A program made the position numbers and the translations under genes. Below the pieces are notes generated by a model. The model saw nothing but the letters and a program-made list of their open reading frames with translations. It did no database searches and had not been told where the DNA came from. This document shows positions 6,915-59,284 of a stretch of 64,000 nt of DNA, in pieces (the first letter of the stretch is position 1; each line of letters begins with the position of its first letter). This DNA comes from Planctomycetota bacterium (GTDB lineage: Bacteria > Planctomycetota > Phycisphaerae > UBA1845), in assembly GCA_043806315.1 (NCBI GenBank), contig JAZDHF010000280.1:2972-66971 (forward strand). The letters are read 5' to 3'.

Positions 6915-7148
6915 CGGTCCAATCCCGTCCTACGCTACGCCGCCCCAAGTACATGCACCGGAACACCTCACAAACCGGACGCCTTTTCGGAGTGATGCTA
7001 CGGCCTCGCGTGCGAGTTGTAAACACCGGGTCGCAGGTTCACCTTGGCGCTCGGCTTCCGACCTGCGGTGTGACGGCGCTTATCTCCGGCCCATCCGGCG
7101 CTCCGCATTCGCCCACGAGTCACCGGCCACATAGTCGGGTCATCGACC

Positions 7149-7292
7149 AGGGCAATCGCATCTTAATGTGAAACGGCGTTTATCATGCTGATAATGCGGA
7201 GGCAAGCTGGCGGGATTAAGGATCCCGAACTGATCGAACCCACGTACCAGCCGCGCCACGCGGGCTCCGGCGATTTAGATGCGATTGCCCTG
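7149..7292. mobile_element. MITE-like non-autonomous element, copy 1
   Basis: About 144 bp. Terminal inverted repeats (C)AGGGCAATCGCATCT at both ends. Flanked by direct repeat GGTCATCGACC at 7138-7148 and 7293-7303. About 98% identical to copy 2. Confidence 0.75.
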
Positions 7293-7503
7293 GGTCATCG
7301 ACCCGACGCTTTGTCCCGTGCGTGGGGACGATTCGTCGGCCCTGCAAATCCGACCTGCAACCGATATTCACCCCGACCCCCCTTTATCACTACTGGGACA
7401 AGCGTTTTTGCACGTCTACAGACCCCTTTGCCAGTACTGATAACCCGCATAGAGGTGAACATCGGCTGCAAGTACAACTCTGCACTCCCCCACGAATCAC
7501 CAG

Positions 7504-9542: not shown

Positions 9543-9621
9543 GTCATTCTGAGCGCAGCGAAGAATCTCCTTACGTGTCGAGATGCTTCGCTCCGAGATT
9601 CTTCGCTGCGCTCAGAATGAC
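9543..9621. repeat. Palindromic REP-like element (GTCATTCTGAGCGCAGCGAAGAATCTC arms)
   Basis: 27-bp arms at 9543-9569 and 9595-9621 are exact reverse complements. A related element lies at 12966-13030. Confidence 0.75.
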
Positions 9622-10018: not shown

Positions 10019-10216
10019 GTGCCCTGCCCCGAACTGACTGCCGCCTTCTTCAGTTGGGACGATCATCACCTTTTCACCGTGGCCATTGTCGCCGTCATCG
10101 TTTTCCTGGCGACATCCTCGCGCCGCCCCTCGCGTCGATGCACTCGCTGTCGCGAAATCAACCGTGAGCAGGCCGTCTACTGCGCCCAATGCGGCACGCG
10201 GCTGCCCAAACGGTGA
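10019..10216 (+). CDS. Small membrane protein with C-terminal zinc ribbon (putative)
   Basis: 65 aa. One hydrophobic helix, then CTRCREINREQAVYCAQCG. No other support. Confidence 0.3.
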   Translation: MPCPELTAAFFSWDDHHLFTVAIVAVIVFLATSSRRPSRRCTRCREINREQAVYCAQCGTRLPKR

Positions 10217-10296: not shown

Positions 10297-10416
10297 GAAG
10301 TTCAAAGTGCGAAGTTCAAAGTTCGAAGACGGGCTCCGCCTCTTGCGCGCCCGGCGAGAGCGTTGCGTCTCTTTGAACTTTGACTTTTGAACTTCGAACT
10401 TTGAACTTCGAACTTC
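10297..10416. repeat. Heptamer-armed hairpin element (GAAGTTC/CAAAGTT repeats), 3' of the pilin operon
   Basis: Left arm 10297-10328 and right arm 10371-10416 are imperfect reverse complements built of 7-nt repeats. Starts 4 nt after the stop at 10420. Confidence 0.8.
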
Positions 10417-10419
10417 CCT

Positions 10420-11991
10420 CTACGACGGCGAAATGCTCAACGTCGCGACCTCGATGTTGACGACGGGCGACGGACCGTCGAAGGTCGGCGTCTGCTCGCC
10501 GCCGGGTTGTGAACGGTCCACCGCCGGCGGGAAGACCCACACCGTCCGCAACAGCTCTTCGGGATCGGGGTCTTTGGTCCAATCGGTCTTCGTGCAGCTT
10601 TCGCAGCGCGAATCGCCGGCGGGGATCTCGATGTCTTCCTGGAGGATCTCGCGGTCGAGCGTCAGGATCGCTGACTCGTTGCCGTTCTGGTCGAGGAGGA
10701 TCCGGCGCTTGGCGACGCGGTAGACGTGCCCTTCGATCTCATCCACGAATGTCGTGCCGGACGGGAACATCGAGGCCAAACCGCCTGCCAGACTGCCTGT
10801 TACACCGTCAGGAGGAACGTGGATTTCCGTGGGCACGCCGGTCGGGACCTTCGCTGAGTCTGGGGGAGCGCTGCGATACGCGAGCGACCTGGGAAGCTGA
10901 ACCTGCACACGCCACCCGACGGGGAACATCACGTCGTTTTTCGACTCCATGGCCGCCGGCTCGACGGCCTGGACCGGGCGAACGAACGAGAACGGATTGG
11001 GGATTCGCGCCGGAGTGGGGTCCTGCCGCGCGTAGCGGTTGGTCGACTTGGAGCGCCGCAACGTGACATAGTACATGTCGAAGGTGCGCGTGCTCCCCAT
11101 CGCCGCCGCGGCCTCACGGACCAGTCTATCGGATTCCCCCGGCAGCACCGACGGGTCGAACGCAAGCGGCGCCGGACCGACGCGAGTGCGCAGGCGATGC
11201 AGCACCGCCCAACAAAATCGCCGCGTGGCCAGTTTCTCGTTCCATTGGTCCAGTTCCTGACCGGGCACCGCAGGGGGCGCGGCGATGGGCGGGTAAAGCC
11301 GCTCCCAGACCCGGACTTGCGGAGTGTAGAAAAGTCGATCGGGGAACGCCTCGCCCCGGTTGCGCTGGTTGACGGGATGCGGATAGTCGGTCTTCAAGAA
11401 CCGGCCTTGGACGATCTGCGTCACGGGAGGCGTCGGGAAACTCCCACCGGGGTCCTCCAAGTCCCACGGATTCTCGGGGACGGTGGCGACGACCTGGACC
11501 GTGCTGAGGAAGAGAATGTTCTCGACGTTCAGAGCGTGAACCGACGTGTCGGAGTAGGCGAGGATGGCCTTGTACCAATCGAGCCGTGGCGATGCCGGTC
11601 CCACTAACGTCGGATCGAAAAACATGTCGCCGGCCAGACTCCCCGTCGTCAATTGCGACTCCTCGAAGCACGGCGTCGGTGGAGGAGGGCAGACTTTCAC
11701 GAGACTATGTCCAGCCGGGCGAAGCAAGGCCGATAGCGTCGCATGGGCGCCGGAGGAGGCCGCTTGTTCGACGGTGTAGTCGCTGAGCGTTCGCGCCCGG
11801 TCCCAGGCGACGGGGAAAATCGTCGCCACCATCACCAATCCCAAACCGAGAATGACAATGGCGATCATCATCTCTACAAGGGAGAAGGCGCTGCGCGAAG
11901 CGAGAAGTGAGAAGTGAGAAGTGAGAAAGGGGATGAACCGACCTTCCTTCAGTCTTCTCACTTCTAACTTCAGTCTCCGTTTCTCGCTCAT
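10420..11991 (-). CDS. Large pseudopilin (prepilin-type N-terminal cleavage/methylation domain)
   Basis: 523 aa. SRSA|FSLVEMMIAIVILGLGLV class III signal after a 35-aa leader. Start overlaps the upstream stop (ATGA). Confidence 0.75.
   Translation of the reverse strand: MSEKRRLKLEVRRLKEGRFIPFLTSHFSLLASRSAFSLVEMMIAIVILGLGLVMVATIFPVAWDRARTLSDYTVEQAASSGAHATLSALLRPAGHSLVKVCPPPPTPCFEESQLTTGSLAGDMFFDPTLVGPASPRLDWYKAILAYSDTSVHALNVENILFLSTVQVVATVPENPWDLEDPGGSFPTPPVTQIVQGRFLKTDYPHPVNQRNRGEAFPDRLFYTPQVRVWERLYPPIAAPPAVPGQELDQWNEKLATRRFCWAVLHRLRTRVGPAPLAFDPSVLPGESDRLVREAAAAMGSTRTFDMYYVTLRRSKSTNRYARQDPTPARIPNPFSFVRPVQAVEPAAMESKNDVMFPVGWRVQVQLPRSLAYRSAPPDSAKVPTGVPTEIHVPPDGVTGSLAGGLASMFPSGTTFVDEIEGHVYRVAKRRILLDQNGNESAILTLDREILQEDIEIPAGDSRCESCTKTDWTKDPDPEELLRTVWVFPPAVDRSQPGGEQTPTFDGPSPVVNIEVATLSISPS
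11900..11987. repeat. Heptamer-armed hairpin element (GAGAAGT variant) inside a prepilin leader
   Basis: Arms at 11900-11930 and 11942-11987, imperfect. Translated as EKRRLKLEVRRLKEG...LTSHFSLLAS. Confidence 0.6.
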
Positions 11992-13082
11992 GGCGCTTTC
12001 GCGACCGCCTCACCGACCGGACCGCGGACGACGGCCCCGGTCAAACGATGGACGTAAAACGGCTGGGCCGCGTCCAGAAGGAACTGCCGCTTCTGCTCCG
12101 CCGTCCCCGCGTTGCTGAACAAGGATTCGTCGTACACCAACAGTCCGTCAACCGAGGGGAAATTGATGGCCACATCCCTGTTCCCCGCGTCGGTCACCAG
12201 AGAGTCAATCTTCTGCACGCCTTTGGGGTCAATGTTCAAGGTCACATTCGCTTGGTCATAGTATTTGGACACCTGCGCAGGTGGTGCACCGGGACCGCCG
12301 ACGGTCAACCCGGTCACGTCGCCACCGGGGCTTTTGTCCGGATCGGCGTCGAGGTCGCGGATCAACACGTCGCGCCGCACGCGCAACTGCCCACTGCTCG
12401 AGTAAATCATGGAAAAGAAGTTCCGATGCCGCTGGGCTTGATCGCGGTCCGGGGGGAGGGAAATCGTGAAGTCGTTGTTCTCCAACTCCTGCGGGCTGAA
12501 CGTCGCCGCTCTCACTTTGGCTGGATCGACACCGGTCCATTTCCGGTCGTTGGGATCCTCAACAACGTACCTCGGCACGACGCGCATAGGGACGGGCAGG
12601 GCGTAACTTCGTTCCGTCGTGACGTTGAAGACGTTGGCCCAGGCCTCGCGGGTGGCGGGATCGGCGGCCTTTTTCGCGTCCTGGATAATCGATACGATCC
12701 GTTGCACCCCGGCCTCATCGACGTAGAAAAACAGACCGCTGTCGCCGAAGTCGTTCTGCATGGCCCGGGCCCGGGTGGTCATCAACATGCCGCTGATAGT
12801 GTCCTGGGCCTCGGCGATGCGACGCTCCTTCCACATCGTGCTCGCGGCCGGGAGCACGATCCCCACGATCAGCAGGATGACGGCCACCACGATCACCATT
12901 TCGACCAACGTGAACGCAGAAGTTCGAAGTGCGAAGTTCGAAGTGCAAGAGAATGGGCGGCGGTTGTCACCCTGAGCGAAGCGAAGGGTCCAGCTCCAGA
13001 ACGAAGATGCTTCGCTTCGCTCAGCATGACGCTCGCCCGCCGCGCCTTTCTTGAACTTTGAACTTTGAACTTTGAACTTCAT
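11988..13082 (-). CDS. Pseudopilin with a 62-aa leader
   Basis: 364 aa. RTSA|FTLVEMVIVVAVILL. The only in-frame start upstream of the FTLVE motif is the ATG at 13082. Confidence 0.7.
   Translation of the reverse strand: MKFKVQSSKFKKGAAGERHAERSEASSFWSWTLRFAQGDNRRPFSCTSNFALRTSAFTLVEMVIVVAVILLIVGIVLPAASTMWKERRIAEAQDTISGMLMTTRARAMQNDFGDSGLFFYVDEAGVQRIVSIIQDAKKAADPATREAWANVFNVTTERSYALPVPMRVVPRYVVEDPNDRKWTGVDPAKVRAATFSPQELENNDFTISLPPDRDQAQRHRNFFSMIYSSSGQLRVRRDVLIRDLDADPDKSPGGDVTGLTVGGPGAPPAQVSKYYDQANVTLNIDPKGVQKIDSLVTDAGNRDVAINFPSVDGLLVYDESLFSNAGTAEQKRQFLLDAAQPFYVHRLTGAVVRGPVGEAVAKAP
12919..13080. repeat. Nested palindromic elements (outer heptamer arms, inner REP-like palindrome)
   Basis: Outer arms at 12919-12949 and 13050-13080. 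Inner arms at 12966-12986 and 13010-13030 (GTCACCCTGAGCGAAGCGAAG / CTTCGCTTCGCTCAGCATGAC). Confidence 0.8.
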
Positions 13083-14122
13083 TGCGGCTTGATTCCCTTG
13101 GCCAGTTTCTCCTTCAACGCCGGGTTGGAATAGACGTTGTCGTCGTTGTACGGTTCATTGATGATGTGGTCGTGGGCCGCGCCGCCGGAGAAGTCGTAAA
13201 CGAGCGACACCAACCCCGTCGCTCCCATCGCGTCCTTGGTGAGCTGGTCCTTTCCGTTGGGTCCGTAGGAGAAGATGACCGGCTGCCCGCCGTTGAGCCG
13301 GATGATCTCCGTCGAGGAGCGGTTCCATGTGTCGTGATTCCTCGAGGGGATCGGCATGAAACTGGGATTCACGGACGGGTCCTGCCAATCGCGCTCAGAG
13401 AAATAGCTAATCGGGTTGCCCCAGTCGTCGATGATTAACCGAATCTGGTGGTCGTTCGGATCCCAGGCTCCGGTTGCTCCTCCCGTACGGTCCAGGAACA
13501 GCGCCGGAGTGCCGTCGGCTTGCAGAGCGCCGACGGTGCGATTGCGGTCGGGGATGCGGTCAAGGATGGCGGAGCCCGACTCGCTCAAGGTCTCGATCGC
13601 CAGGATCATGGCCGCTTGGTCGCGGTTCTCCAGGGCATTCGCCGCTTGGTCCCCGTCTTTGTAGAAGCGCATGGCACCCCAGGAAGGCGTAGGCGCCGGC
13701 ACGATGACCGCGCCGCCAGCGGCGAGTGTTCGTACCGCTGGCGGCGGTCCGCTGCCCGGCAGCCCCGCGAGCGTGAACACCTCTAACTCATCCGGCGGGT
13801 AAGCCCCGTAACGGTCGGAATAATTCACGGTCAGGGGTGGAGGGACTAGTTTGGGTTGCCGGGCCCGGGTGATCGTGGGCTTGGCGGTTTGCTCGCGTTT
13901 GAATTCCTCGACCGCGTCCGCGACGATCTGCAGGACCGACTGCGTGTTGTTGCTGCGGCCCTTGTTGATGAAGCCGGAACTGGCCACCAGGATGGCGCTG
14001 ACCAGGATGCCGATGACGACGATGACGATGAGGAGCTCGACGAGGGTAAGCGCCCGCTGCGAGAACGAGGTTCGAAGTTCAAAGTTCAAAGTTCGAAAAC
14101 GAATACCCCATCTGCGCTGCAT
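13079..14122 (-). CDS. Pseudopilin (prepilin-type N-terminal domain)
   Basis: 347 aa. SQRA|LTLVELLIVIVVIGIL. Confidence 0.75.
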   Translation of the reverse strand: MQRRWGIRFRTLNFELRTSFSQRALTLVELLIVIVVIGILVSAILVASSGFINKGRSNNTQSVLQIVADAVEEFKREQTAKPTITRARQPKLVPPPLTVNYSDRYGAYPPDELEVFTLAGLPGSGPPPAVRTLAAGGAVIVPAPTPSWGAMRFYKDGDQAANALENRDQAAMILAIETLSESGSAILDRIPDRNRTVGALQADGTPALFLDRTGGATGAWDPNDHQIRLIIDDWGNPISYFSERDWQDPSVNPSFMPIPSRNHDTWNRSSTEIIRLNGGQPVIFSYGPNGKDQLTKDAMGATGLVSLVYDFSGGAAHDHIINEPYNDDNVYSNPALKEKLAKGIKPQ

Positions 14123-14156
14123 TGTCCTGACCTTTTGAACTTCGACCTTTGAACTT
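14067..14156. repeat. Heptamer-armed hairpin spanning the start codon of the 13079..14122 gene
   Basis: Arms at 14067-14099 (coding) and 14131-14156 (5' UTR), about 21/25 paired. The ATG (14120-14122) lies in the loop. Confidence 0.75.
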
Positions 14157-14164
14157 TAGGCTTT

Positions 14165-15301
14165 TCAGTCCGTCTTTCGCGTCCAGTTGAGTACGTCGTC
14201 GTCGGTGCCGTAACGGGCGTCGGGACCGGCGCTGATCAACAGATAGGCGTCCTTTTGCACCGGCGTGGGGCGGGCCTTCACCGAACCGTCGAGGATGAAG
14301 CGTGCGAAGGTGTGCTTGTAATCGTCCCCCTGAGAGGCGACGTCTACGACCTTCACCGAGGGGTCCGGCGATTTGGCGCCATGAATCCAATGCTGTTGCC
14401 CATGTTCATCGGTGCTGGCGCCGAAATCGAGACCCTTGACCTCACCCAACAGGCCTTCCGCGCTGCCCGTGATAATCGCGTTGTCCTCTTGCCAGTAGAT
14501 GCCCGGCTTGCCCGAGGCGCCCGTCATCCGCAGGGCGGTTGGGTTGGCCTTGTAATACAGGATCGGATGGTCCCAGGGGTCGGTGAAGACGCGCTGGCCG
14601 CTGGCGATCTTGGGCGAACCACCCTCCAGCGCAGCCAAGTTGAGGATCGTCCCTTTGTCGGCCAGTTCTTGCAAAGTCTTGGCGCTCTCCTTCATCTTCT
14701 CGTCGACGTACCCGGCCCCGCCGTAACGCGGGAACTTCTCCTTGCCCGTAGCGGGGTCAACGGCGTAGATGCCCGATTTCCCAGTCGCCGCGTCGTATTT
14801 CTTGTGCGTGTCGTGCGACCAAAGTCCTTTGGCCTCGGGGGTCACGTCGCGGAACCCCGGCGTACCCAAGCCGTCCGCTCCGATCATCGCGTGAACGAGC
14901 AGATGTGCGCCGGCGATTCGGACCTTCGTGTTTGGATCTTCGCCCTGCGGATCGGCGATCGTCTGGCGGTCGGTTGGAGGATCCGTGTCATCCCCGGCGG
15001 ACGGCGGCAGGGTCCCGCCCAAGGCCGCCTCGGCGCGAAAGGCGTTGATGCCGGTGTCCAGAGCCTTGAACTGGGCGCTGGCCTGAGCGAGTTTCGCCTG
15101 ACCCCTCACCGCCGAAAACGCGGGCAACAGCGCCGCGAGCAGCAGAGCGATGATCGCGACCACCACCATCATCTCCACTAAAGTGAACGCGCGAACCGGA
15201 AGTTCGAAGTTAGAAGTTCGAAGTTCGAAGACCGAAGGGCGTCGCCTCCGAGCCCGGTCGTGTATCTTTGAACTTTGAACTTTGAACTTTGAACTTTTCA
15301 T
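14165..15301 (-). CDS. GspG-like pseudopilin with large central insert
   Basis: PVRA|FTLVEMMVVVAIIALLL. C-terminal LLISAGPDARYGTDDDVLNW resembles the GspG C-terminus. ATG at 15301 chosen, 5 nt after the upstream stop. Confidence 0.75.
   Translation of the reverse strand: MKSSKFKVQSSKIHDRARRRRPSVFELRTSNFELPVRAFTLVEMMVVVAIIALLLAALLPAFSAVRGQAKLAQASAQFKALDTGINAFRAEAALGGTLPPSAGDDTDPPTDRQTIADPQGEDPNTKVRIAGAHLLVHAMIGADGLGTPGFRDVTPEAKGLWSHDTHKKYDAATGKSGIYAVDPATGKEKFPRYGGAGYVDEKMKESAKTLQELADKGTILNLAALEGGSPKIASGQRVFTDPWDHPILYYKANPTALRMTGASGKPGIYWQEDNAIITGSAEGLLGEVKGLDFGASTDEHGQQHWIHGAKSPDPSVKVVDVASQGDDYKHTFARFILDGSVKARPTPVQKDAYLLISAGPDARYGTDDDVLNWTRKTD
15198..15298. repeat. Heptamer-armed hairpin element inside a prepilin leader
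   Basis: Arms at 15198-15230 (GAAGTTC repeats) and 15266-15298 (CTTTGAA repeats). Translated as KSSKFKVQSSK...VFELRTSNFEL. Confidence 0.8.
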
Positions 15302-15305
15302 CTGA

Positions 15306-16436
15306 TTACTCCGTCCACGGCGGAAGGTTGGAGACATCGTCACTCGTACCGTAGCGCCCGTCGACGCCGGCGCTGATCAGCAGATACCCGTCCGCGTTCA
15401 CCGCCCGGAGCGGCATGGTCGGCTTGGCGTCGGTCGGGTGGGCCGCGTAGGCGCTGTAGATCTTGCGGTCGATGATATATCGAGCGAAGTTTTCGCGATG
15501 CTCGATGAGCTCCTGCTTTTCCGCAGTCACCATGTCCACCGCCGTTTCCTTCGCCCCGGACAGCGCGATGGTATGTTTGGCTCCCGTGTTGCCGAAATCC
15601 CAGCCACGCTCCGTATCCGCGTTCCCTTTCCCGGTGAAGGGGATGTTGTCCTGATGGAAGTACATCGGGGGGCCCTTCTCCTGGTCCCCACCGTCGTAGT
15701 TGTTGTCCACCTTTCGGACGTCCTCGACCATGTTCGATTCCCGGCCGTGGGCGTTGGCCGCGTAATAGAGGATCGGTTGATCGAACGCATCGACGACGAC
15801 CGGAAGGTTCTGCACGCCTTGGGGGTCGTTGTCGTCTGAGGTCCAGCCCGTACCAAACAGTGCTCGATTCGGCCGCCCGGGCAAGTCCTTCGTCTTTTTC
15901 ACCGCCAGCCCGTTCGTATCCGCGTACGGTCCGCCGCGAGGCTGCAACACCTGCCCCGGCCCGAGCGGATCCGGCGTATACCACTTCCACGGCAGCTTCT
16001 GCAGGTCGTCCTTGTTCGGTACAATACTGCGTTTGATGTACCCCAACTGATCGACCCCCATCAGCATCGCCGGCAACCAGTGCGCGCCGGTGACGACCGG
16101 CTTCTTCTCCAGGAATGGAAACTCCCCTAGGAGCGACTGAAAGACTGGTGGATTGCCAATCGGCGGATGGGCGAACGAAGGCGGATAGCCGTTGGTCCGC
16201 GGGAAGTCCGGCCCGTTGTCGTTCTTGAACATTTCCAGCCCGACCTTGATGGAGTCGAGGGCCTTCTTGGTCGTCATCTTTTTCGCTGCGTTGCGCGCGG
16301 CGCTCAATGACGGGACCAGAATCCCAATGAGCAGGGTGATGATGAAGATCACGGTCAGCAACTCCACGAGCGAGAAGCCTCGCCGCCGCGAATGCGGAAT
16401 GGTGAATTCGGAATGTCGAAATTCAAAATTGAGCAT
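15306..16436 (-). CDS. GspG-like pseudopilin with large central insert
   Basis: RRRG|FSLVELLTVIFIITLLIGILVP (canonical Gly at -1). C-terminal LLISAGVDGRYGTSDDVSN. Confidence 0.8.
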   Translation of the reverse strand: MLNFEFRHSEFTIPHSRRRGFSLVELLTVIFIITLLIGILVPSLSAARNAAKKMTTKKALDSIKVGLEMFKNDNGPDFPRTNGYPPSFAHPPIGNPPVFQSLLGEFPFLEKKPVVTGAHWLPAMLMGVDQLGYIKRSIVPNKDDLQKLPWKWYTPDPLGPGQVLQPRGGPYADTNGLAVKKTKDLPGRPNRALFGTGWTSDDNDPQGVQNLPVVVDAFDQPILYYAANAHGRESNMVEDVRKVDNNYDGGDQEKGPPMYFHQDNIPFTGKGNADTERGWDFGNTGAKHTIALSGAKETAVDMVTAEKQELIEHRENFARYIIDRKIYSAYAAHPTDAKPTMPLRAVNADGYLLISAGVDGRYGTSDDVSNLPPWTE

Positions 16437-16460
16437 GCTTAGCCTCCATTCCGCATTCGC
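16388..16460. promoter_or_regulatory. Perfect 15-bp stem hairpin bracketing the SD and start codon of the first pseudopilin gene
   Basis: GCGAATGCGGAATGG (16388-16402) and CCATTCCGCATTCGC (16446-16460). The loop holds GGAGG and the ATG (16434-16436). The region has a 7-nt GAAnnnn periodicity. Confidence 0.6.
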
Positions 16461-16469
16461 CGTTTCGGC

Positions 16470-17726
16470 TCAACCTTTAGAAACATTCTCGATCAGTTTG
16501 ACCAGAGGCAGGAACAGCGCGATCACGATGAACCCGACGATACTGCCCAGGAGGACGACCATGAGCGGCTCAAGGAGGGAGACCAGGCTCGCCACCGCGA
16601 CGTCGATGTCCTCCTCGTAGTTGTCCGCGATCTTCAGCAGCATCTTGTCGAGCTCGCCGGTTTCCTCGCCGACGTCGATCATATTGGTCACCAATCCGTC
16701 GCAAACCCTGGTCGCCCGCAACGGGGCGGCGAAGCTCTCGCCCTCGCGGATGGAGTCGTGTACTTTCTCCATGGCCCGCGAGTAAACCTCGTTGCCGGAG
16801 GTTTCGCGAGTGATAAGGATCGCCTCCAGGATCGGCACGCCCGCGCTGATGAGCGTGCCCAGGGTGCGCGTAAATCGCGCCACCGCGTTTTTCTCCAGCA
16901 GGTTTCCGAAAACGGGGATTTTCAACCCCACGAAGTCCACCACGTACCGCCCGCCCTTGGAGGATCGGATCAGCTTGAACACGAAATAGATCGCGAACGG
17001 GCCGAACAGGATAACCGCCCACCCCGGCGGTTTCCCCTTCATCACCCAGTCCGACGTATTCATCAACACCAACGTCATACCCGGCAAGGTGACGTCGAAG
17101 TCCCTGAAAATGTCTTTGAACTTGGGGATGACCACGATCATGATGCCGGTCACGATGCCCATGGCGAACGTAACCACGACGATCGGGTAGATCATCGCCC
17201 CGATGATCTTTCGCTTCAGCTTCTCCGCTTTCTCCATGAACTCGGCCAAACGCTGCAGGATCACGTCGAGCACGCCGCCCGTCTCCCCCGCCGCGACCAT
17301 GTTCACGTACAGACGGTTGAACGCTTTGGGGTGCTTGGAACACGCCTCCGACAACGTCGAACCGCCCTCGATATCCTCCGCGACCCCGCGCAGAATGTTC
17401 TTCAGCGTCCCCGGTTTTTGTTGCTCTTCGAGGATGTTGAGGCTGCGGAGGATCGGCAAACCGGCGTCCTGCAGGGTGGAAAGCTGGCGAGTGACCTCGG
17501 TCAGGACCTTGGTCTTGACCCGCCCGAAGGCGAAGCCGCCGCCTTTCTTCTTCTTCTTGCCCGGAGCGGCGGCCTTCGCCTTGGTGCCGCCCTTTTCGCG
17601 GATGCGCGTCGGGAAGTAGCCGAGGTTGCGGATTTTGGCGAGAGCGTCCTCGTTGGAGAGCGCCTCGAGCTCGTCCTTCACCTGCTCCCCGCCCTGATTC
17701 ATGGCCTCATAGGCGAATGTCGGCAT
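16470..17726 (-). CDS. Type II secretion/type IV pilus platform protein (GspF/PilC family)
   Basis: 418 aa. Two T2SSF-type repeats with TM segments. Sits next to the secretion ATPases. Confidence 0.9.
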   Translation of the reverse strand: MPTFAYEAMNQGGEQVKDELEALSNEDALAKIRNLGYFPTRIREKGGTKAKAAAPGKKKKKGGGFAFGRVKTKVLTEVTRQLSTLQDAGLPILRSLNILEEQQKPGTLKNILRGVAEDIEGGSTLSEACSKHPKAFNRLYVNMVAAGETGGVLDVILQRLAEFMEKAEKLKRKIIGAMIYPIVVVTFAMGIVTGIMIVVIPKFKDIFRDFDVTLPGMTLVLMNTSDWVMKGKPPGWAVILFGPFAIYFVFKLIRSSKGGRYVVDFVGLKIPVFGNLLEKNAVARFTRTLGTLISAGVPILEAILITRETSGNEVYSRAMEKVHDSIREGESFAAPLRATRVCDGLVTNMIDVGEETGELDKMLLKIADNYEEDIDVAVASLVSLLEPLMVVLLGSIVGFIVIALFLPLVKLIENVSKG

Positions 17727-17770: not shown

Positions 17771-19579
17771 TTATTCCTCGATGATCGTTTCCTTCACGAC
17801 CTCATCGAGGGTGGTGATCCCTTCGTAAATCGCCATCAAGCCGGTCTCACGCAGCGTGCGCATGCCGCGCTTGACCGCTTCGTGTCGCAGCACGGCCGTC
17901 GATCCCTTGCGCATGATGAGCTCGCGCAAGGGGTCGTCCAGGATCATTGACTCGTAAATCCCCATCCGGCCCCGGTAGCCGGTGTTGTTGCAGTAGTCGC
18001 ACCCCTTACCGTAAAAGAACATCCGATCGCCGACGTCCTCCGGCCGCAGGTCGACTTCCATCAGTTGCTCTTCGGTCGGGCGGTACTCGGCCTTGCAGTT
18101 GGTACAAATCCGCCGCACCAACCGCTGAGCCACGATCGCCTCAAGTGTCGCCGTAATCAAAAACGGCTCCATCCCGAGGTCCAACAAGCGCGCGATAGCG
18201 GACGGTGCGTCGTTCGTATGCAGCGTCGTGAAGACCAGGTGTCCCGTCAACGAGGCTTGAACGCTGATTTGGGCCGTCTCCAAGTCGCGGATTTCGCCGA
18301 CGAGGATGATGTCCGGGTCCTGCCGCAAGAAGCTACGGAGGCAGCGGGCGAAGGTCAGCCCCACGTCCGGGCGGACCTGCGTTTGAATGATCCCGTCGAT
18401 GTCGTACTCCACGGGGTCCTCGGCGGTAAGAATCTTCACGTCCGGCTCGTTGAGTTCCGAGAGAGCGGAATACAGCGTCGTGGTTTTGCCGCAGCCGGTT
18501 GGACCCGTGTTGATGATGATCCCATTGGGTTTACGCATGAGCTGGCGGAAGGTCGCCAACTCATCGTCGCGCATTCCGATCTTATCGAGGCTGAGCGCCA
18601 CGACGGAGCGGTCGAGCACGCGGAGCACCACGCTTTCCCCGAACATCGTCGGCAGCACGCTGACGCGAAGGTCGATGGGCATCCCCCGCAAGGACAGCTC
18701 GATGCGTCCATCCTGGGGGAGTCGCCGCTCGGCGATGTCGAGGTTGGCCATGACCTTGATCCGCGAGGCGATGGCCAGGGCCACGTACCGCGGCGGCGGC
18801 ACCATCTCGTACAGCACGCCGTCGATGCGGTAGCGCATCTTGAACTCCTCGTCGAACGGTTCGAAGTGGATGTCGCTCGCCTTGTCCTTGATGGCTTGGA
18901 GCAACACCAGGTTGAGGAGCTTCTTGACCGGGTTGAGGCCCATCATCTCCTTGATTTCGGCGAGGTCGATGGAGTCTCCGCGGTTGTTGAACTTAGCGAG
19001 GTCTTCGTCATCGGCCAGCTCGCCGATCAGGTTGGCGATGGATTCCTGCTCCCCTTCGGGATAGAACCGGTCGATGGCGTTTTGCAACTCTTGGGGGGAG
19101 CAGAGGAACGCCTTGATGTTGAAGCCCAAGAGCGTCTTGAGATCATCCGTGGCCATGAAGTTGTCCGGGTTATCGAGGGCCACGGAGAGCTCGTTCCGCT
19201 CGCGATTCAACTCGAAGGCGACCACCCGGTAGGTGTTGGCCATTTGGGCGGTCATCACCGCGACCACCTCGGGAGGAACGTCGAGCTTTCCCAGGTCCAC
19301 CGTGCCCATTCCGCTCTGGGCGGCCAGGGCAATGTTGAGCTCTTCCTCGGTGACGTAACCCAACTCGACGAGGATTTGTCCCAGCGGGCCTCGCTTCTGC
19401 TTTTGGATGTCGAGAGCCTCGTGGACCTGCGTGCGGCGCAGCTTCCCCATCTTGATGAGGATGCGACCGAGCTGCCGCCCGCGAAGCTGCTCGATGGGCG
19501 GCATCTTCAGCTTCGCCTTTGCGGCGGGGGCCGCGCTCGGCTTGGCGGTCGCAGGATTGGTGGTCGGTTGAGGCGGCAT
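17771..19579 (-). CDS. GspE/PilB-family secretion ATPase, copy 1
   Basis: 602 aa. N-terminal T2SSE_N-like region, Walker A GPTGCGKTTT, C-terminal CxxC...CxxC cluster. Confidence 0.9.
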   Translation of the reverse strand: MPPQPTTNPATAKPSAAPAAKAKLKMPPIEQLRGRQLGRILIKMGKLRRTQVHEALDIQKQKRGPLGQILVELGYVTEEELNIALAAQSGMGTVDLGKLDVPPEVVAVMTAQMANTYRVVAFELNRERNELSVALDNPDNFMATDDLKTLLGFNIKAFLCSPQELQNAIDRFYPEGEQESIANLIGELADDEDLAKFNNRGDSIDLAEIKEMMGLNPVKKLLNLVLLQAIKDKASDIHFEPFDEEFKMRYRIDGVLYEMVPPPRYVALAIASRIKVMANLDIAERRLPQDGRIELSLRGMPIDLRVSVLPTMFGESVVLRVLDRSVVALSLDKIGMRDDELATFRQLMRKPNGIIINTGPTGCGKTTTLYSALSELNEPDVKILTAEDPVEYDIDGIIQTQVRPDVGLTFARCLRSFLRQDPDIILVGEIRDLETAQISVQASLTGHLVFTTLHTNDAPSAIARLLDLGMEPFLITATLEAIVAQRLVRRICTNCKAEYRPTEEQLMEVDLRPEDVGDRMFFYGKGCDYCNNTGYRGRMGIYESMILDDPLRELIMRKGSTAVLRHEAVKRGMRTLRETGLMAIYEGITTLDEVVKETIIEE

Positions 19580-19589: not shown

Positions 19590-20735
19590 TCAACTTCTGA
19601 ACACCGACGCCTCTTCTTCCTCACCCTCAGCGCCGACTTTCTTCTCCATCTTGCTCATGTCCAGCCCGCGGCGGTGGGCGTCGATCTTGTCCTGCATGGC
19701 CCCCGGATGTCGCGATTTGTCGATGCAGTCCTCGGCGTTGATCGTGCCGGCTTCATACAATGTCCACAGGTGCTCGTCGAGCAACTGCATGCCGTACTTC
19801 TTCCCCGTTTGGATGGCGGAGTCGATGCGGAATGTCTTGTTCTCCCGGATCAGGTTGGCGATGGCCGGCGTGGTAACCATGAACTCGTACGCCGCGATCA
19901 TCCCCTTCCCAATCCGCGGCAGCAGCACTTGGGACAAACTGGCGATCAGGTTGGTCGACATCTGCACGCGGATTTGCTCCTGCTGCTCGTGCGGGTACGC
20001 GTCGATGATTCGGTTGATGGTGCCCTGGCAGCCCGTGGTGTGCAGCGTGCTGAAGACCAGGTGCCCGGTCTCGGCGGCGCGGATTCCGGCCGCTATGGTC
20101 TCCAAATCGCGGAACTCGCCGACCAGGATTACGTCCGGGTCCATACGCAACACACGCTTCAGCGCTTCCGAGAAGCTCGGCACGTCCGTCCCGATTTCAC
20201 GCTGGTTGACGAGCGACTTCCTATGGGTGTGGTAGTACTCGATGGGGTCCTCGACGGTAACGATGTGGCGATCGAGGCTCTTGTTGATGTAGTCGAGCAT
20301 GGTCGCCAGGGTCGTGGTCTTTCCGCACCCTGTCGGCCCGGTGACCAGGAACAGCCCGCGCGGCCGACGGCACAACGCCCGGCAGATATTGGGAAGACCG
20401 ATCTCCTCAAAGGTCAGCAACTTGGCCGGGATCAGACGCAGCACGATCGCGATGTTGCCCTTCTGCTTGAAGATGGATACACGAAACCGCCCCGCGTCCC
20501 CGAAGGCAAAGGCGAAGTCCGTGCCGCCCTCTTCCTGCAGCTCTTGTTGGTTGCGTTCGGGGCAGATGGCCTTCATCAGGGCCGTGGTATCGTCGGGGCC
20601 GAGGACTTTCGTCTCCAGCGAACGCAGATGCCCCTGCAAGCGGATGACCGGCGGTCGCCCGACGGTCAGATGCAAGTCGGATGCTCCCTGTTTGATGACC
20701 GTCTCCAACAGATGATCGATGTGAAGACTCGCCAT
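19590..20735 (-). CDS. pilT: PilT-family retraction ATPase
   Basis: 381 aa. GASDLHLTVGRPPVIRLQG N-terminus and Walker A GPTGCGKTTT. About 35 aa of acidic C-terminal extension. Confidence 0.88.
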   Translation of the reverse strand: MASLHIDHLLETVIKQGASDLHLTVGRPPVIRLQGHLRSLETKVLGPDDTTALMKAICPERNQQELQEEGGTDFAFAFGDAGRFRVSIFKQKGNIAIVLRLIPAKLLTFEEIGLPNICRALCRRPRGLFLVTGPTGCGKTTTLATMLDYINKSLDRHIVTVEDPIEYYHTHRKSLVNQREIGTDVPSFSEALKRVLRMDPDVILVGEFRDLETIAAGIRAAETGHLVFSTLHTTGCQGTINRIIDAYPHEQQEQIRVQMSTNLIASLSQVLLPRIGKGMIAAYEFMVTTPAIANLIRENKTFRIDSAIQTGKKYGMQLLDEHLWTLYEAGTINAEDCIDKSRHPGAMQDKIDAHRRGLDMSKMEKKVGAEGEEEEASVFRS

Positions 20736-20756
20736 TCCATTCGTCCTCGAGAACCG

Positions 20757-22475
20757 TTACGCTGTTTCCGCCACGATCCCCTCTGCCTGGGTTGTGCCTA
20801 CCAGATCGTCCGCGGTGGTCACGCCCCGCAGCACCTTCAGCTTTCCATCCTCCAACAACGTTCGCATTCCGGCCGCCCGGGCCGCCGCCCGAAGCTGGGT
20901 CGTTGTCGCGCGGTTGAAGGCCAGGTCGCGGATTTGCGTGTTCATCGTCATCAATTCAAAGATGCCGATACGCCCTCGAAACCCCGTGCCGCTGCACCGC
21001 TTGCACCCCACTCCCTTCCAGAACGTCTTCCCGGCCGTTTCCGCCTCGGTAAACCCCAGCAGCTTGAGCGACCGGGGGTTCGGATTGGGATCCTCCACCT
21101 TGCACTCCGTGCAGATCACCCGGACGAGCCGCTGGCCCATGATCGCCTGGATGGAACTGGCCACCAGGAAGGGCTTGATCCCCATATCGGTCAAGCGCGT
21201 GATCGCCGAGGGAGCGTCGTTGGTATGCAGGGTGCTGAACACCAAGTGGCCCGTCAGCGCTGCCTGGATCGCCACGTCCCCCACTTCGCGGTCACGGATT
21301 TCGCCGACCAGGATGATGTTCGGCGCCTGACGCAGCATCGAGCGGAGAATCCTGGCGAAAGAGAGTCCGATTTCCTCCTTCACCTGGCACTGGTTCATCC
21401 CCGTGAAGTTGTACTCTACCGGGTCCTCGGCGGTGATGATCTTCTTGTCCGGGCGGTTCAACTCTTGGAGGGCGGCGTACAGCGTCGTCGTCTTCCCGCT
21501 GCCGGTGGGCCCGGTCACCAGGAAGATGCCGTTGGGCCGGTGAATAATCTTGAGGAACTTCTGGTAATCGTCCTCCGCGAAGCCCAGCGCCGGGATCCCC
21601 ACGCGAACCGATTCGGGCCGGAGAATACGAAGAACCGTGCTTTCGCCGTGATACGCGGGGAGGGCGCTCACCCGGAAGTCGATGTCGCTGCCCCCGATCC
21701 GCATCTTGATCCGACCGTCCTGCGGAACCCGACGCTCCGCGATGTCCATCCCCGACATGATCTTCAACCGCGTCCCCACCGATCCCTGCATCGCCTTGGG
21801 GATGTCGTCACGGATGTGGCAAACGCCGTCGATGCGGAAGCGCACGCGGACGCGGTCCGCCATCGGCTCAATGTGGATGTCGCTCGCCCGCGTGTGCACC
21901 GCCTCGGTAATGATGAGGTTGATCAGCCGGACGATCGGGGCGTCGCCCTCCTCGGCCTGCAAGGTCTTGCTCCCCGCCCCGCCCTCTTCCTCCGGGGCCT
22001 CCTGGTCAATGCTCGCCATGGTCTGCGAAAGCATGTCGCCCTGCGGGTTCACGAACTTCTCGATGAAATGCTTCACCTTGCTCAGGGGCGCCAGCGTGGG
22101 GACGATCTCCCGACCCAGCTTGAACCGCAGCAGGTCCAGGGTCTCCAAGTCCAGGGGATCGGTGATGATGACCTTCAGTTTCGGTCCGTCCTCGCCGAGA
22201 GGGAGGACGGAGTAGTCCTCGATCATCTTGGACGGGATCAGGCCCAGCACCTCGCGATCCACGACGTGCTTATCCAGGTCGATGTATTCCAGCCCGAACT
22301 GGGTCGCCAAGGCCTTGAGCACGTCGTCCTCGGTGCACAACTCCAGCTCGACCAGGGCCTCCCCGATCCGCTTGTTGTGCTCCTTGGCGTAAGCGAGGGC
22401 GTCGGCCAGGGCGTTGGCGTCGATGATGCCCCAGCCGACCAGCGTCTCACCGAGTTTCTTGCGTACTTTGGCCAT
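20757..22475 (-). CDS. GspE/PilB-family secretion ATPase, copy 2
   Basis: 572 aa. Walker A GPTGSGKTTT and a tetracysteine motif (CTECK...CKRCSGTG). Confidence 0.9.
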   Translation of the reverse strand: MAKVRKKLGETLVGWGIIDANALADALAYAKEHNKRIGEALVELELCTEDDVLKALATQFGLEYIDLDKHVVDREVLGLIPSKMIEDYSVLPLGEDGPKLKVIITDPLDLETLDLLRFKLGREIVPTLAPLSKVKHFIEKFVNPQGDMLSQTMASIDQEAPEEEGGAGSKTLQAEEGDAPIVRLINLIITEAVHTRASDIHIEPMADRVRVRFRIDGVCHIRDDIPKAMQGSVGTRLKIMSGMDIAERRVPQDGRIKMRIGGSDIDFRVSALPAYHGESTVLRILRPESVRVGIPALGFAEDDYQKFLKIIHRPNGIFLVTGPTGSGKTTTLYAALQELNRPDKKIITAEDPVEYNFTGMNQCQVKEEIGLSFARILRSMLRQAPNIILVGEIRDREVGDVAIQAALTGHLVFSTLHTNDAPSAITRLTDMGIKPFLVASSIQAIMGQRLVRVICTECKVEDPNPNPRSLKLLGFTEAETAGKTFWKGVGCKRCSGTGFRGRIGIFELMTMNTQIRDLAFNRATTTQLRAAARAAGMRTLLEDGKLKVLRGVTTADDLVGTTQAEGIVAETA

Positions 22476-23932: not shown

Positions 23933-23971
23933 GGCATTACACTCCCTCATTCGTCATTCGTAACTCATCAT

Positions 23972-26404
23972 TCACGGATTAGGCGTACACCGCCCGCAAC
24001 GATCGCGGCAGAACGGACTCCCGCACGTCTCACCCGTCGGACAGTGCTCCCTGCTGATGCACGGATCGCCGCTGCCGCTGCACGTCTTCACGCACGTGGA
24101 TTCGGCACCAAGCCCGGGAAGGGGCGAACCTCTGCATGTGGCCACACCTCCCGGCAGCGGAAACGGATCGCACGCGAGACTGCCCTCGCCGGGACCGCAG
24201 GTCACCAGCGACGGGCACTGGCACGGACCGCCGTACGGATAGGCCAGCCCCTTAAACGCGTCCACCACCGCCACGACGTCCGTTGCGCCGACGTCCGTGT
24301 TGAGTTCCGGCAGGTTCGGTTGAACCTGCGAACGGGAGTTCGCTGGAGCGCCCGCCAGCTTCTTGAACTTGTTGACCAGCGCGGTCGCGTCGGAGCCGTC
24401 GGGCTGCGTCCCAGTCCCCGGCGGGTTGTATGCCGTCTCCACGTCGCCGGAGCGGCGCGTATACATCGGCACGGCGGCGGACACATTCGTGCACGCGTCC
24501 TCGTTGCCCGTGCACGACGCCCCGTAGGTCTTCACGCTGTACTCCGAGCTGGGCATGATCTCCGCACCCACCACCGTGATCCGTCCGCTCGCCGTCTCCG
24601 CGACCCAGTCCGCGTAGAACGGCGAACACTGCAGCCGCGCCGCACGGTAGGGTCCGCTCAACGGCGGGCCCTGGGCCTCGTAGAACGTCGCCGGCTTGCC
24701 CACCCAGCGGGCGCAACCGCCCGTCTCGCCAGTGCCAGTGCAAACCCCGACAGCAGGGGGAACGGGGGCGAGGACGGTTCCGCAAGCAACTCCCGCCTCC
24801 CAGCATCCGAAGTTCTGCGGCGGACAGCAACCCGCGTTCGGCGGCTCCGGATTCTGCAGCTCGACCAACTCCACCCTGATGGCGTCCTGCCCAGGCGTAC
24901 CGGTCGCCGGGCACGGTGGGGACACCATGAAGCGCAACGATCGAGTGGTCCGATCCAGGCTGGGCGGATCGGAGTCCCAAACAATCTCACCCGGCGACGC
25001 AAACTGTCCGCAGACCCTCGCGCACGGGCCAAGGTTAATTTGGATTCTGGAAGGCAGTGGCTCGCTCGGCGAGAGGTCGCCCACACACAGGTTCCCGTCG
25101 AATACGCCGCCGACGAGAATATTCCCTTCAAGTGCGCCACCGACCAGGACATTGCCATCTGAGGACACGTCGCGCGACACGATGATGTCGCCGAGGACAT
25201 CGGCAAAGACCGTTACGGTCCCACCCATATCGCGGTCAATCTGAATGACCCCATTCGAAAGCAGACGCCCTCCACCAGCCATATTCCCGGCCACGCCGAT
25301 TTGACCATCGGCGTCTTCGCGGATGTGGATAGTCCCATTCAGATCGGCCTGACAGAGTTTGATGTCGCTACCCGACGCGGCGCTTAAAAACGTAGCTGTA
25401 CCTGAAAAGACGGCACCATTCTCTGCGAGCCCCACAGTCTCCGTGATTTCTCCGCCATCGAGGATTATCCCACTGCCGCCGCCAGGGATCAGTAGCTCCC
25501 CGGCGACGGGCCAATCGTTAAGGTCGATTGTCGGAATATGCTGCCCAACCGGCGTAAGTGTATCGTAGATTTTGATGACTGCCGACGCCTCGACACCGGT
25601 CCCCAAAAGCATGTCGCCGGAGAACTCGCCTAGGGTCCCCTCGACACCAAATGTGATGGAGACGGCCCCAAGCGTGTCGGCGATCTCGATGCTCGCGTCC
25701 GGGGCAACATTCCCGTTTACGGTCAGGGTTGCAAGCTCCATCACCCCCGTGACCGCGATATCCCCCAGTAGATCACCGCCGATGGTTAGCGACGGGGAGA
25801 GCACCACGGCCTCAATCCTGCCTAGAGCATCACCGGAAATGTCGAGAGACGACACCTGAGGAACAATGATGTCCCCTTCGGCGTCACCGTCGATGGTGAG
25901 GGAAAGGGTTCCGCCTGACCACCCGCTTGTTTTCTGGAGAGTGAGGTTCCCAGCGAGATTGCCAGACATTCTCGATCCGGAAGCGATGGACGAACAATGG
26001 TCGCCCGCTGGCGTCAGGCTCGCGGAGTTGAGGTTGGCGGCACCCGGTCCCTCGTCCGGGTTGGCGATCTTCACGCTATAGTTGTACTCTCCCGGCGAGG
26101 TGATGCTCCCGATGTTCGCCGGAGCGCCCTGCGCGTCCTTCGACCACACACGCCAAGCGTAAAGCGCGCCGGACGGCTCTTGACCAACGAGCAAACGCAC
26201 GGTCGGACCCGTGGGATCAGCGTTGAAGTCAAACACGTAGTCAACGCCCGCGGTCGGCGCGACAGCCAAATTATCGATTCGAACGCAGATGGTCGGTCCG
26301 CCGCCTGTGCCGCAGGCCTCCGGCCCAGCCTTAACACCGGTGCAGGGGGCAACCGTTCCGAAGAACGCGAAAAGCCAGAGCCGTGTGCCGCGTTTCATCC
26401 GCAA
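23972..26404 (-). CDS. Large secreted repeat protein with Cys-rich C-terminus
   Basis: 810 aa. Signal peptide, G/D/I/V-rich beta-repeat core, Cys-rich C-terminal tail. Function unknown. Confidence 0.6.
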   Translation of the reverse strand: MRMKRGTRLWLFAFFGTVAPCTGVKAGPEACGTGGGPTICVRIDNLAVAPTAGVDYVFDFNADPTGPTVRLLVGQEPSGALYAWRVWSKDAQGAPANIGSITSPGEYNYSVKIANPDEGPGAANLNSASLTPAGDHCSSIASGSRMSGNLAGNLTLQKTSGWSGGTLSLTIDGDAEGDIIVPQVSSLDISGDALGRIEAVVLSPSLTIGGDLLGDIAVTGVMELATLTVNGNVAPDASIEIADTLGAVSITFGVEGTLGEFSGDMLLGTGVEASAVIKIYDTLTPVGQHIPTIDLNDWPVAGELLIPGGGSGIILDGGEITETVGLAENGAVFSGTATFLSAASGSDIKLCQADLNGTIHIREDADGQIGVAGNMAGGGRLLSNGVIQIDRDMGGTVTVFADVLGDIIVSRDVSSDGNVLVGGALEGNILVGGVFDGNLCVGDLSPSEPLPSRIQINLGPCARVCGQFASPGEIVWDSDPPSLDRTTRSLRFMVSPPCPATGTPGQDAIRVELVELQNPEPPNAGCCPPQNFGCWEAGVACGTVLAPVPPAVGVCTGTGETGGCARWVGKPATFYEAQGPPLSGPYRAARLQCSPFYADWVAETASGRITVVGAEIMPSSEYSVKTYGASCTGNEDACTNVSAAVPMYTRRSGDVETAYNPPGTGTQPDGSDATALVNKFKKLAGAPANSRSQVQPNLPELNTDVGATDVVAVVDAFKGLAYPYGGPCQCPSLVTCGPGEGSLACDPFPLPGGVATCRGSPLPGLGAESTCVKTCSGSGDPCISREHCPTGETCGSPFCRDRCGRCTPNP

Positions 26405-35471: not shown

Positions 35472-35477
35472 GGAGGA

Positions 35478-59275: not shown

Positions 59276-59284
59276 CGATCGAGC

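Follow-up and report, generated by a model that had tools for sequence, protein, structure and literature searches.

What sits at the gene boundaries of a bacterial pseudopilin operon when nearly every one of them carries a hairpin of the same unusual design, and what keeps it there? This question is raised by a 64,000-nucleotide (nt) stretch of DNA from an uncultured Planctomycetota bacterium (Phycisphaerae, UBA1845; contig JAZDHF010000280.1, positions 2,972 to 66,971), which we refer to as the window. An initial annotation of the window had described eight hairpin elements, six of them in the pseudopilin operon, whose mutually inverted arms consist of tandem 7-nt repeats, and had proposed a mobile or expandable family of RNA hairpins exploited at gene starts. 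We find that the feature is real, statistically strong and reproducible. In related genomes its position at the pilin cistron boundaries persists while its sequence is replaced, and the copies that enter coding sequence keep the reading frame open. We tentatively read the elements as messenger RNA stem-loops, and weigh that reading against four alternatives below.

Heptamer-armed hairpins in the pseudopilin operon

Tandem Repeats Finder detected period-7 arrays at every site named by the initial annotation, and an inverted-repeat search paired these arrays as arms of 24-33 nt that are 80-96% complementary, which places all eight hairpins where they had been reported. The pattern RAAGTTCRAAGTTC, with at most one mismatch, matched the window 34 times versus 0.06 expected, and none of 100 shuffled sequences reached 34. 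A period-7 scan of the full 64 kb found arrays almost confined to the element sites. The elements thus consist of head-to-tail 7-nt units that are over-represented versus chance, as is characteristic of heptameric simple sequence repeats (SSRs). Predicted folding energies range from -26 to -100 kcal/mol (z-scores -2.2 to -11, either strand). The arms are mutually inverted as described; the spacers between them, given as 30-60 nt, measure 25-105 nt. We add to the original description that all host genes lie on the minus strand.

All six pilin-operon boundaries in the window carry an element. We number the elements 1 to 8 by coordinate and denote as J1 to J5 the junctions at the starts of pseudopilins 1 to 5, J1 lying between the GspF gene and pseudopilin 1. 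Four of the five pseudopilin products reach the threshold of the Pfam family N_methyl (prokaryotic N-terminal methylation motif); the product of 11988-13082 (pseudopilin 4) has no Pfam match, yet shows the same A/FTLVEM motif (a slash marks the cleavage site). Five elements do lie at pseudopilin starts as claimed, but the statement that they overlap the first codons masks two architectures: at J2, J4 and J5 the hairpin lies wholly downstream of the ATG, whereas at J1 and J3 the ATG lies in the loop.

In the first architecture the hairpin belongs to the leader coding sequence. At J5, element 2 (11897-11971, minus strand; GAGAAGT/ACTTCTC-type arms) is contained entirely in the leader of pseudopilin 5 (10420-11991, minus strand), whose ATG at 11991 overlaps the upstream TGA (ATGA) and whose leader reads MSEKRRLKLEVRRLKEGRFIPFLTSHFSLLASRSA/FSLVEMM. 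J4 has the same ATGA overlap, with its ATG at 13082, and the 56-amino-acid (aa) leader of pseudopilin 4 (11988-13082, minus strand) holds the whole of GAAGTTC-type element 3 (12919-13080, minus strand). Element 3 is long because a second, unrelated palindrome resembling repetitive extragenic palindromes (REP), at 12959-13037, is nested in its loop. At J2, the ATG of pseudopilin 2 (14165-15301, minus strand; ATG 15301) stands four bases past the upstream stop, preceded by GGAG, and GAAGTTC-type element 5 (15198-15298, minus strand) lies entirely in the 38-aa leader (MKSSKFKVQSSKIHDRARRRRPSVFELRTSNFELPVRA/FTLVEMM). Because no other in-frame start lies between this hairpin and the A/F cleavage site, element 5 must be translated; the NCBI annotation gives the same 378-aa product, long leader included.

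In the second architecture the hairpin straddles the start codon. Element 4 (J3; 14067-14157, minus strand; GAAGTTC-type) has its 5' arm in the spacer past the pseudopilin 2 stop, the ATG of pseudopilin 3 (13079-14122, minus strand; ATG 14122) in its loop, and a 3' arm that codes the leader (ending in RFRTLNFELRTSFSQRA/LTLVELL). Element 6 (J1; 16388-16460, minus strand), a GAATGNN/NNCATTC hairpin, has the Shine-Dalgarno sequence GGAGG on the border between stem and loop and the ATG of pseudopilin 1 (15306-16436, minus strand; ATG 16436) in the loop, and its 3' arm is coding. It is the weakest of the elements, with two GAATGNN units in the mRNA 5' arm and four in the 3' arm. At both J1 and J3 the 5' arm ends at or beside the Shine-Dalgarno sequence. 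Junctions with a spacer thus have the start in the loop, and junctions with overlapping stop and start have the hairpin inside the leader.

The remaining element of the operon, element 1 (10297-10416, minus strand; GAAGTTC and GAACTTY arms), starts 4 nt past the last pseudopilin stop (10420-10422), in agreement with the initial annotation; it is non-coding and no T-run follows it. Adjoining it at 10019-10216 is a small zinc-ribbon-like open reading frame (ORF), which resembles the ORFs of 58787-60561, a cluster of overlapping or paralogous ORFs with a common C-terminal zinc-ribbon-like motif (C..C...CPECG). The palindrome in the loop of element 3 belongs to a separate REP-like family (GTCAYYCTGAGCGNAGCGAAGRRTC followed by its reverse complement) that has another window copy at 9543-9621, with perfect 27-bp arms; in related genomes it is also nested in the pilin-junction hairpins of L129 (J4 loop) and L131 (J2).

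Translation of these arrays follows a simple rule. Because three 7-nt units make seven codons, an array yields the same cyclic 7-aa peptide in all three frames, and the periodic peptides given by the initial annotation (SKFKVQS, here written KFKVQSS, and FELRTSN) are correct. AAAGTTC and GAACTTC repeats are stop-free, whereas every third unit of a GAACTTT repeat brings TGA into frame. The 3' arm of element 4, which is translated, has its sole C-variant unit exactly at the would-be TGA, and in translated GAACTTY arms overall T was found in 0 of 11 units at risk of TGA versus 4 of 20 elsewhere, a contrast of small numbers that is partly a logical necessity. Across the related operons described below, an in-frame start codon, in most cases ATG, lies upstream in 69 of the 69 junction leaders scored. 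Gene callers read such repeats as odd low-complexity N-termini or overlook the true start, and arrays elsewhere yield spurious short "hypothetical proteins". A repeat-peptide search of a 5.8-billion protein set returned 37 matches, all of 55-114 aa and with no Pfam domain; the nine we inspected were largely translated arrays and uninformative on host gene classes.

Fixed positions and changing sequence

We recovered operons from about 20 related genomes, of which the closest public relatives are labelled Phycisphaera; about 19 non-duplicate loci entered the density counts. The junction zone was defined as the 170 nt upstream of the five pilin cleavage sites, with the ATPase, GspF, ABC-transporter and other genes as background. 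Period-7 arrays occur at 5.03 per kb in the junction zone (61 in 12.1 kb) versus 0.04 per kb elsewhere (4 in 97.9 kb), and those four likewise lie at pilin boundaries. The concentration at pilin cistron boundaries noted in the window is thus reproduced in the relatives. Near-continuous helices of at least 20 bp are present in 27 of 68 junction windows versus 2.3% of 1,106 background windows.

The heptamers that occupy one and the same junction vary across genomes and include GAAGTTC, GAATGNN, GAGAAGT/GAAGACT, CAATTGC with (CGTGCCT)n, CGACAAT and GGTGATT. At J3, a heptamer hairpin with the start codon in its loop is found in 13 of 17 non-duplicate genomes and draws on at least four heptamer families, and in four more genomes GC-rich palindromes take its place. 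The order of the arms is constant: in 37 of 37 GAAGTTC- and GAATGNN-family hairpins of the clade the complement comes second, after the RAAGTTC or GAATGNN array, on whichever strand the hairpin is read, and the opposite order was never seen among them.

Comparison with the nearest relatives (L133, L124 and L118) shows how this turnover proceeds. These operons are recombination mosaics of the window operon (10420-16436), in which blocks of 98-100% identity alternate with blocks of 40-70% identity, and the junctions are among the divergent ones. A mosaic within pilin genes would be expected for diversifying surface proteins. In the 5' arm of J1 (16446-16460 region), the window lacks exactly 14 nt, or two units, relative to L124 and L133, within identical flanks; this exact indel is the one repeat-number polymorphism found between strains, and it supports the description of the elements as expandable. 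Presence and absence are also polymorphic at J2, where the window, L133, L120 and L121 carry a hairpin allele and L124 and L118 a plain allele on closely related backbones. More widely, the pseudopilin 2 leader is 12 aa long in most of 120 orthologues (MNRNAATVRRGA/FTLVEMM), and few have a hairpin leader. As for mobility, the non-coding 50-nt loop of element 1 (10326-10375) is 98% identical to L133 3546-3594, the loop of a translated J4 leader hairpin, and a whole element can therefore occupy different junctions. Together with the two alleles of J2, this weakly supports the proposed mobility. We rejected the notion that loops are more conserved than coding sequence, as backbone blocks of close relatives are themselves 98-100% identical; because these relatives are mosaics with near-identical blocks, identical loops carry no extra weight.

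Outside the pilin operon the window has four sites: two intergenic hairpins, one solo array and one in-frame copy. The initial annotation had placed two elements elsewhere in the window, and both are there, but one of them is not intergenic. Element 7 (55751-55841, minus strand; GAAGTTC-type) lies in frame within metH, which encodes methionine synthase, where it forms an insertion of ~31 aa (including EKVKVQRSKFKDNSPAAVPLSSNFELRTSNFG) in the linker that joins the B12-binding domain to the activation domain. The linker has about 30 residues more than that of Thermus MetH; the element is absent from the MetH orthologues compared, whose linker length varies. The 5' leader of metH also holds an Acido-Lenti-1 RNA (Rfam; 58474-58519, minus strand; 46.9 bits versus a gathering score of 37); the likely true start of the gene (MTESPFIQALRERVLVLDG, near 58384) is ~90 nt downstream of it. 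Element 8 (61599-61715; GAAGTTC-type) is intergenic, between a GHL10-family gene (ending at 61714) and a gene for a ROK-family kinase, which probably starts below 61613. An additional hairpin with GAATGNN arms (48292-48375, plus strand) starts 8 nt past the stop codon of a gene for a POT transporter, between two convergent genes. The solo direct array, (GAATGAN)x4 at 23941-23975 (minus strand), has no partner arm and fills the spacer from the upstream stop (23972-23974) to the Shine-Dalgarno sequence and ATG of a beta-helix protein gene.

Upstream of the pseudopilin genes and in the same orientation are genes for a GspF-like platform protein (16470-17726, minus strand) and a GspE-like ATPase (17771-19579, minus strand), beyond which lie two further T2SSE ATPase genes (19590-22475). 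The window contains repeats of other kinds as well. A 126-nt tandem repeat (31503-32027, 4.2 copies) lies inside a 1102-aa ORF, and its period would fit WD40 repeats; a 128-nt tandem repeat (35207-35477, 2.1 copies) lies in a GC-rich region. An element of ~147 bp that looks like a miniature inverted-repeat transposable element (MITE) has two copies (7147-7293 and 50997-51141), with the inverted repeats CCAGGGCAATCGCATCTTAAT and ATTTAGATGCGATTGCCCTGG at its ends.

Relation to known repeats

The closest published parallel is in Haemophilus influenzae, where an (ATCTTTC)n heptamer repeat forms a hairpin in the 5' untranslated region (5'-UTR) of the adhesin genes hmw1A and hmw2A, and RNase III processing of the hmw1A 5'-UTR hairpin controls expression (PMC12721329). 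As in hmw, the 5' end of a gene for a surface protein carries tandem 7-nt units that make up an arm of a long hairpin, here at five pilin starts and as predicted folds. Repeat number varies in hmw and alters expression (PMC12721329), and in both systems the stem is long enough for RNase III. The differences are considerable: in hmw only the left arm is a repeat, of at least 10 units, and the right arm is G-rich, whereas each of the two arms here is a repeat of 2-5 units. In hmw the element lies in untranslated sequence and is confined to one locus type; here many copies are translated, every cistron has one and the heptamer differs by junction. The array of the hmw type is long, with 10-11 units or more, and untranslated, whereas three of the five pilin hairpins here are translated in full.

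Heptameric repeats are over-represented in bacteria, cyanobacteria included, with inverted arrays in Xanthomonas (GGGAATC) and Nostoc (GGGGAYT) (PMC4692102), and in Beggiatoaceae TAACTGA repeats directly precede start codons (PMC4679880). One heptamer can span distant phyla, slippage has been proposed as the origin, and the function is unknown (PMC4692102, PMC4679880). Our elements resemble these SSRs in having tandem units mostly at gene boundaries, some in inverted pairs able to form stem-loops. The published arrays are intergenic and mostly direct, and no gene-class association has been reported for them, whereas here inverted pairs dominate, are concentrated more than 100-fold at prepilin starts and are routinely translated.

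The heptamer of our elements is itself widespread. Arrays of (RAAGTTC)n with at least 3.5 units were found in at least 117 contigs from Verrucomicrobiota, Acidobacteriota, Bacteroidota, Planctomycetota, Chloroflexota, candidate-phyla-radiation groups and others. They are mostly solo and direct, often stand beside arrays of other heptamers, and by crude gene calls lie near gene starts in 40% of cases versus 18% of random positions and near gene ends in 29% versus 8%. Across phyla, GAAGTTC arrays at gene starts showed no preferred orientation with respect to the genes beside them (21 sense versus 25 antisense, again by crude gene calls). In Phycisphaerae, (RAAGTTC)n arrays also occur in frame inside large ORFs. 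Two Phycisphaera genomes, for example, carry a solo in-frame (RAAGTTC)4 at the same position of a ~1000-aa protein (L105 near 2390; L028, minus strand, near 4234), and the two arrays differ in their A/G variants. The sequence family is therefore not specific to pilins. A few pilin-like genes of other phyla do have such arrays in the leader, and outside the clade 4 of 124 GAAGTTC arrays lie near an N-methyl motif, an association that is suggestive only. A pilin leader of Acidobacteria bacterium 28-1 (L073, minus strand, near 5512) opens with MKFKVQSSKFKV, a GAAGTTC-type array, followed directly before G/FTLLEL by a hairpin with AGGGACA and CATCCCT arms. We dropped the resemblance of GTTCGAA to the tRNA T-loop as a coincidence.

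Several known classes of palindrome share single traits with our elements. Rickettsia palindromic elements (RPE; Ogata et al. 2000) are reportedly inserted in frame in protein-coding genes. Like them, our hairpins are tolerated in frame at permissive ORF sites and add a peptide; the MetH linker and the pilin leaders fit this description, and in the MetH linker and the pseudopilin 2 leader the palindromic insertion is absent from orthologues. RPE are copies of a 100-150-bp consensus that includes the central part, whereas here only the internally periodic arms are common: the eight window loops are mutually unrelated, and only that of element 1 recurs (in L133). REP and bacterial interspersed mosaic elements (BIME) are intercistronic palindromes that stabilise mRNA, for example at malE-malF, by blocking 3' decay, and can thereby determine how strongly the cistrons are expressed relative to one another. 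Our elements are likewise found between presumably co-transcribed genes or past the last gene and in many copies per genome. REP sequences are extragenic (as are REPINs; PMC3116915), conserved as 20-40-nt palindromes and tied to the RAYT transposase; the present elements have arms of tandem repeats, extend into coding sequence and belong to varying sequence families. There is no shared core as in a MITE, and no flanking direct repeats were seen on reading the sequence, a point on which no systematic search was made. Nor are these Rho-independent terminators, as the stems are AT-rich with no T-run behind them, and an intrinsic-terminator scan called 8 terminator-like sites versus 8.1 expected, none of them a heptamer hairpin. 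At the gathering score no Rfam 15 family matched the elements, and at E<=1 the only match was a sub-threshold generic hairpin, mir-483 (31 bits versus 60 required).

The initial annotation knew of no description of such a class. This holds only in part, since heptamer repeats, their inverted arrays, the hmw hairpin of Haemophilus and palindromic insertions in frame are already known. Our literature searches for these exact sequences, their peptides and the association with prepilin leaders found no paper. As far as we found, the element itself is undescribed, and what is new is its fixed link to the starts of prepilin genes and the fact that hairpins are translated as leader peptide.

What the hairpins may do

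The reading that we favour, although we hold it at somewhat short of an even chance, is that palindromes of heptamers, built by slippage and open-reading where translated, act as intercistronic mRNA stem-loops that tune each pilin cistron. We favour a stem-loop at each pilin cistron boundary because position is fixed despite sequence turnover, architecture tracks the spacer and the frames remain open. The hairpin past the last gene and the hmw precedent also speak for it. The elements are palindromes of tandem 7-nt repeats rather than copies of one transposon, and in this reading they grow, shrink and are rapidly replaced through slippage and recombination between alleles; heptamer palindromes or other palindromes could supply the boundary stem-loop. 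Where a spacer is available (J1, J3), the purine-rich 5' arm occupies it and ends in the Shine-Dalgarno sequence, with the start in the loop and the leader coded by the 3' arm. Where stop and start overlap (J4, J5) or nearly abut (J2), the entire hairpin lies in the leader coding sequence and is translated. This would be tolerated because prepilin peptidase removes the leader and a 7-nt repeat gives a stop-free 7-aa peptide in every frame; selection need only maintain the frame across the whole hairpin and keep TGA out of the GAACTTY arm. The translated sites are dispensable, given an ancestral leader of ~12 aa in most orthologues and the variable length of the MetH linker.

On a polycistronic mRNA, each hairpin would then set the output of the neighbouring cistrons. 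It could do so by (i) limiting free ribosome entry, so that initiation relies on ribosomes arriving from the upstream cistron; (ii) acting as a barrier to, or substrate for, RNases, since stems of at least 20 bp could be RNase III substrates; or (iii) shielding the mRNA upstream of it from 3' decay. With arms made of simple repeats, stem length changes from strain to strain, which would produce heritable variation in pilin stoichiometry. What the sequences show is the anatomy, the enrichment, the turnover and the maintenance of frame; transcription of the elements, their folding in vivo and an effect on expression are presumed throughout this model.

A number of observations weigh against it. 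The proposal that the structure acts as RNA was not supported by a comparison of strands: the sense strand folds no better than the antisense (-53.2 versus -54.1 kcal/mol; sense more stable in 30 of 69), the sense bias in G.U pairs or A.C mismatches sought as a sign of the functional strand was not found, and A.C mismatches are in fact slightly commoner in the sense strand (53 versus 34). Five orthologous J2 hairpins retain A.C mismatches that synonymous or conservative changes could repair, and their 5' arms gather uncompensated substitutions. Because the strands fold alike and the J2 mismatches are uncompensated, selection on the mRNA fold specifically is not evidenced. An early impression of better folding on the plus strand probably reflects stop-codon avoidance and a lysine preference in the translated arms. 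Helices of at least 15 bp are missing from about a third of junction windows, J4 of L118, L121 and L127 is a direct array only, without a partner arm, and J2 has no hairpin in about half of the genomes. Two contigs that are 99.3% identical show no change in repeat number across three junctions. The same heptamer arrays, finally, occur genome-wide and in many phyla in unrelated contexts and in frame within large proteins.

The main rival to the favoured reading, which we consider unlikely, is neutral or selfish accumulation. Hairpin repeats, heptameric or REP-like, would arise anywhere and persist where they do no harm, in spacers, cleaved leaders and variable linkers; the pilin operon would collect them as a recombination mosaic with five permissive sites, and palindromes may draw further insertions. 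Every translated copy does lie where sequence is dispensable, in a leader that is cleaved off or in a linker that varies in length; palindromes of unrelated families share the junctions and are nested in loops, the junctions are among the divergent mosaic blocks, and plain 12-aa leader alleles exist. The lack of compensatory change and of a sense-strand bias points the same way, as do the arrays of other phyla, which lie mainly at gene boundaries of all kinds. Harmlessness would account less readily for an enrichment of more than 100-fold over ~98 kb of flanking sequence that is rich in other intergenic spacers, or for the occupation of six of six pilin-operon boundaries when the rest of the window has only four sites. 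Nor would it predict that J3 has a palindrome in 17 of 18 genomes through complete sequence turnover (13 heptamer-armed and four GC-rich), or that arm order is the same in all 37 hairpins.

Less likely than neutral accumulation are roles in phase variation, at the DNA level and at the peptide level. SSR contingency loci are known in the pilus and adhesin genes of pathogens, and like them our arrays lie in the 5' coding part of genes for a surface structure and repeat a unit whose length is no multiple of 3. Heptamer slippage hotspots might thus switch pilins ON and OFF by frameshift, or grade expression where they lie upstream of the start, as in hmw (PMC12721329), and so diversify a structure exposed to phages and grazers. 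The two-unit indel between near-identical sequences and the mosaic, diversified pilin domains of the operon fit such a locus, which we consider improbable all the same. Because all 69 scored leaders have an in-frame start, none is an evident OFF allele, and OFF-frame alleles were not seen among the 69 junctions; one possible case comes from an unrelated uncultured bacterium (L095; CBDUQS010000008.1, minus strand, near 5466), where ATG and (GAAGTTC)4 are out of frame with the GFTLVEL of a pilin-like gene. That array could be a phase-OFF allele or reflect an unrecognised start. Unlike contingency loci, the arrays are short (3-5 units) and imperfect, which would lower slippage rates; the 99.3% identical contigs do not differ in length, the sole indel is in a non-coding arm, and one copy is in frame in metH, where switching would be harmful.

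A role in DNA rather than RNA is more improbable again. The arrays might resemble operators whose heptads are recognised by a DNA-binding protein, comparable to the contiguous 7-bp heptads bound by the ribbon-helix-helix omega repressor of pSM19035, or be cruciforms and recombination hotspots that promote the exchange of pilin cassettes. Such a role would accommodate the absence of an RNA strand signature, the occurrence of both direct and inverted arrangements, the fixed orientation of the 37 hairpins and the coincidence of mosaic block borders with junctions. The GAATGNN family would suit it as well, since its arms conserve a 5-nt core but often fail to pair at the two N positions, which is the pattern of a recognition unit rather than of a stem. 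Many regulators would be needed, however, because heptamers differ both between adjacent junctions of one genome (at least three unrelated heptamers; GAATGNN, GAAGTTC and GAGAAGT in the window) and between sister genomes at the same junction. Alleles also differ without array homology that could drive exchange, and the same heptamers lie in metH and past unrelated genes. We regard selection on the extended leader peptide itself (basic, Ser/Lys/Arg-rich, 7-aa periodic), for example for membrane targeting or the timing of prepilin processing, as very unlikely: leaders remain in frame and AAAGTTC, which gives the Lys-rich and Glu-free KFKVQSS, is preferred to GAAGTTC in translated 5' arms, but the peptides are wholly different in each heptamer family (KFKVQSS, FELRTSN, IPHSAFR, HSTFDIR, IANCQLP), a 12-aa leader suffices in most orthologues and the same elements occur at non-coding positions.

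A bolder form of the stem-loop reading, which we offer as doubtful, is that bacteria of the Planctomycetes-Verrucomicrobia-Chlamydiae (PVC) group, here Phycisphaerae, need a long stem-loop of any sequence at the 5' end of each pseudopilin cistron, and that self-expanding heptamer palindromes read as leader meet this need. They would then form a distinct class of operon-tuning element, in which position and polarity are selected while the sequence turns over by slippage and allele exchange, and which might double as an evolvability device for pilus composition. Natural hairpin and plain alleles exist at the same junction on closely related backbones, and the system is a tractable test of why heptameric repeats are over-represented in bacteria. 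If the hairpins do tune expression, they would be a simple and evolvable way to set the ratios of subunits encoded in one transcript, and they would mean that structured non-coding elements can inhabit coding sequence, with the cleaved leader as a safe harbour.

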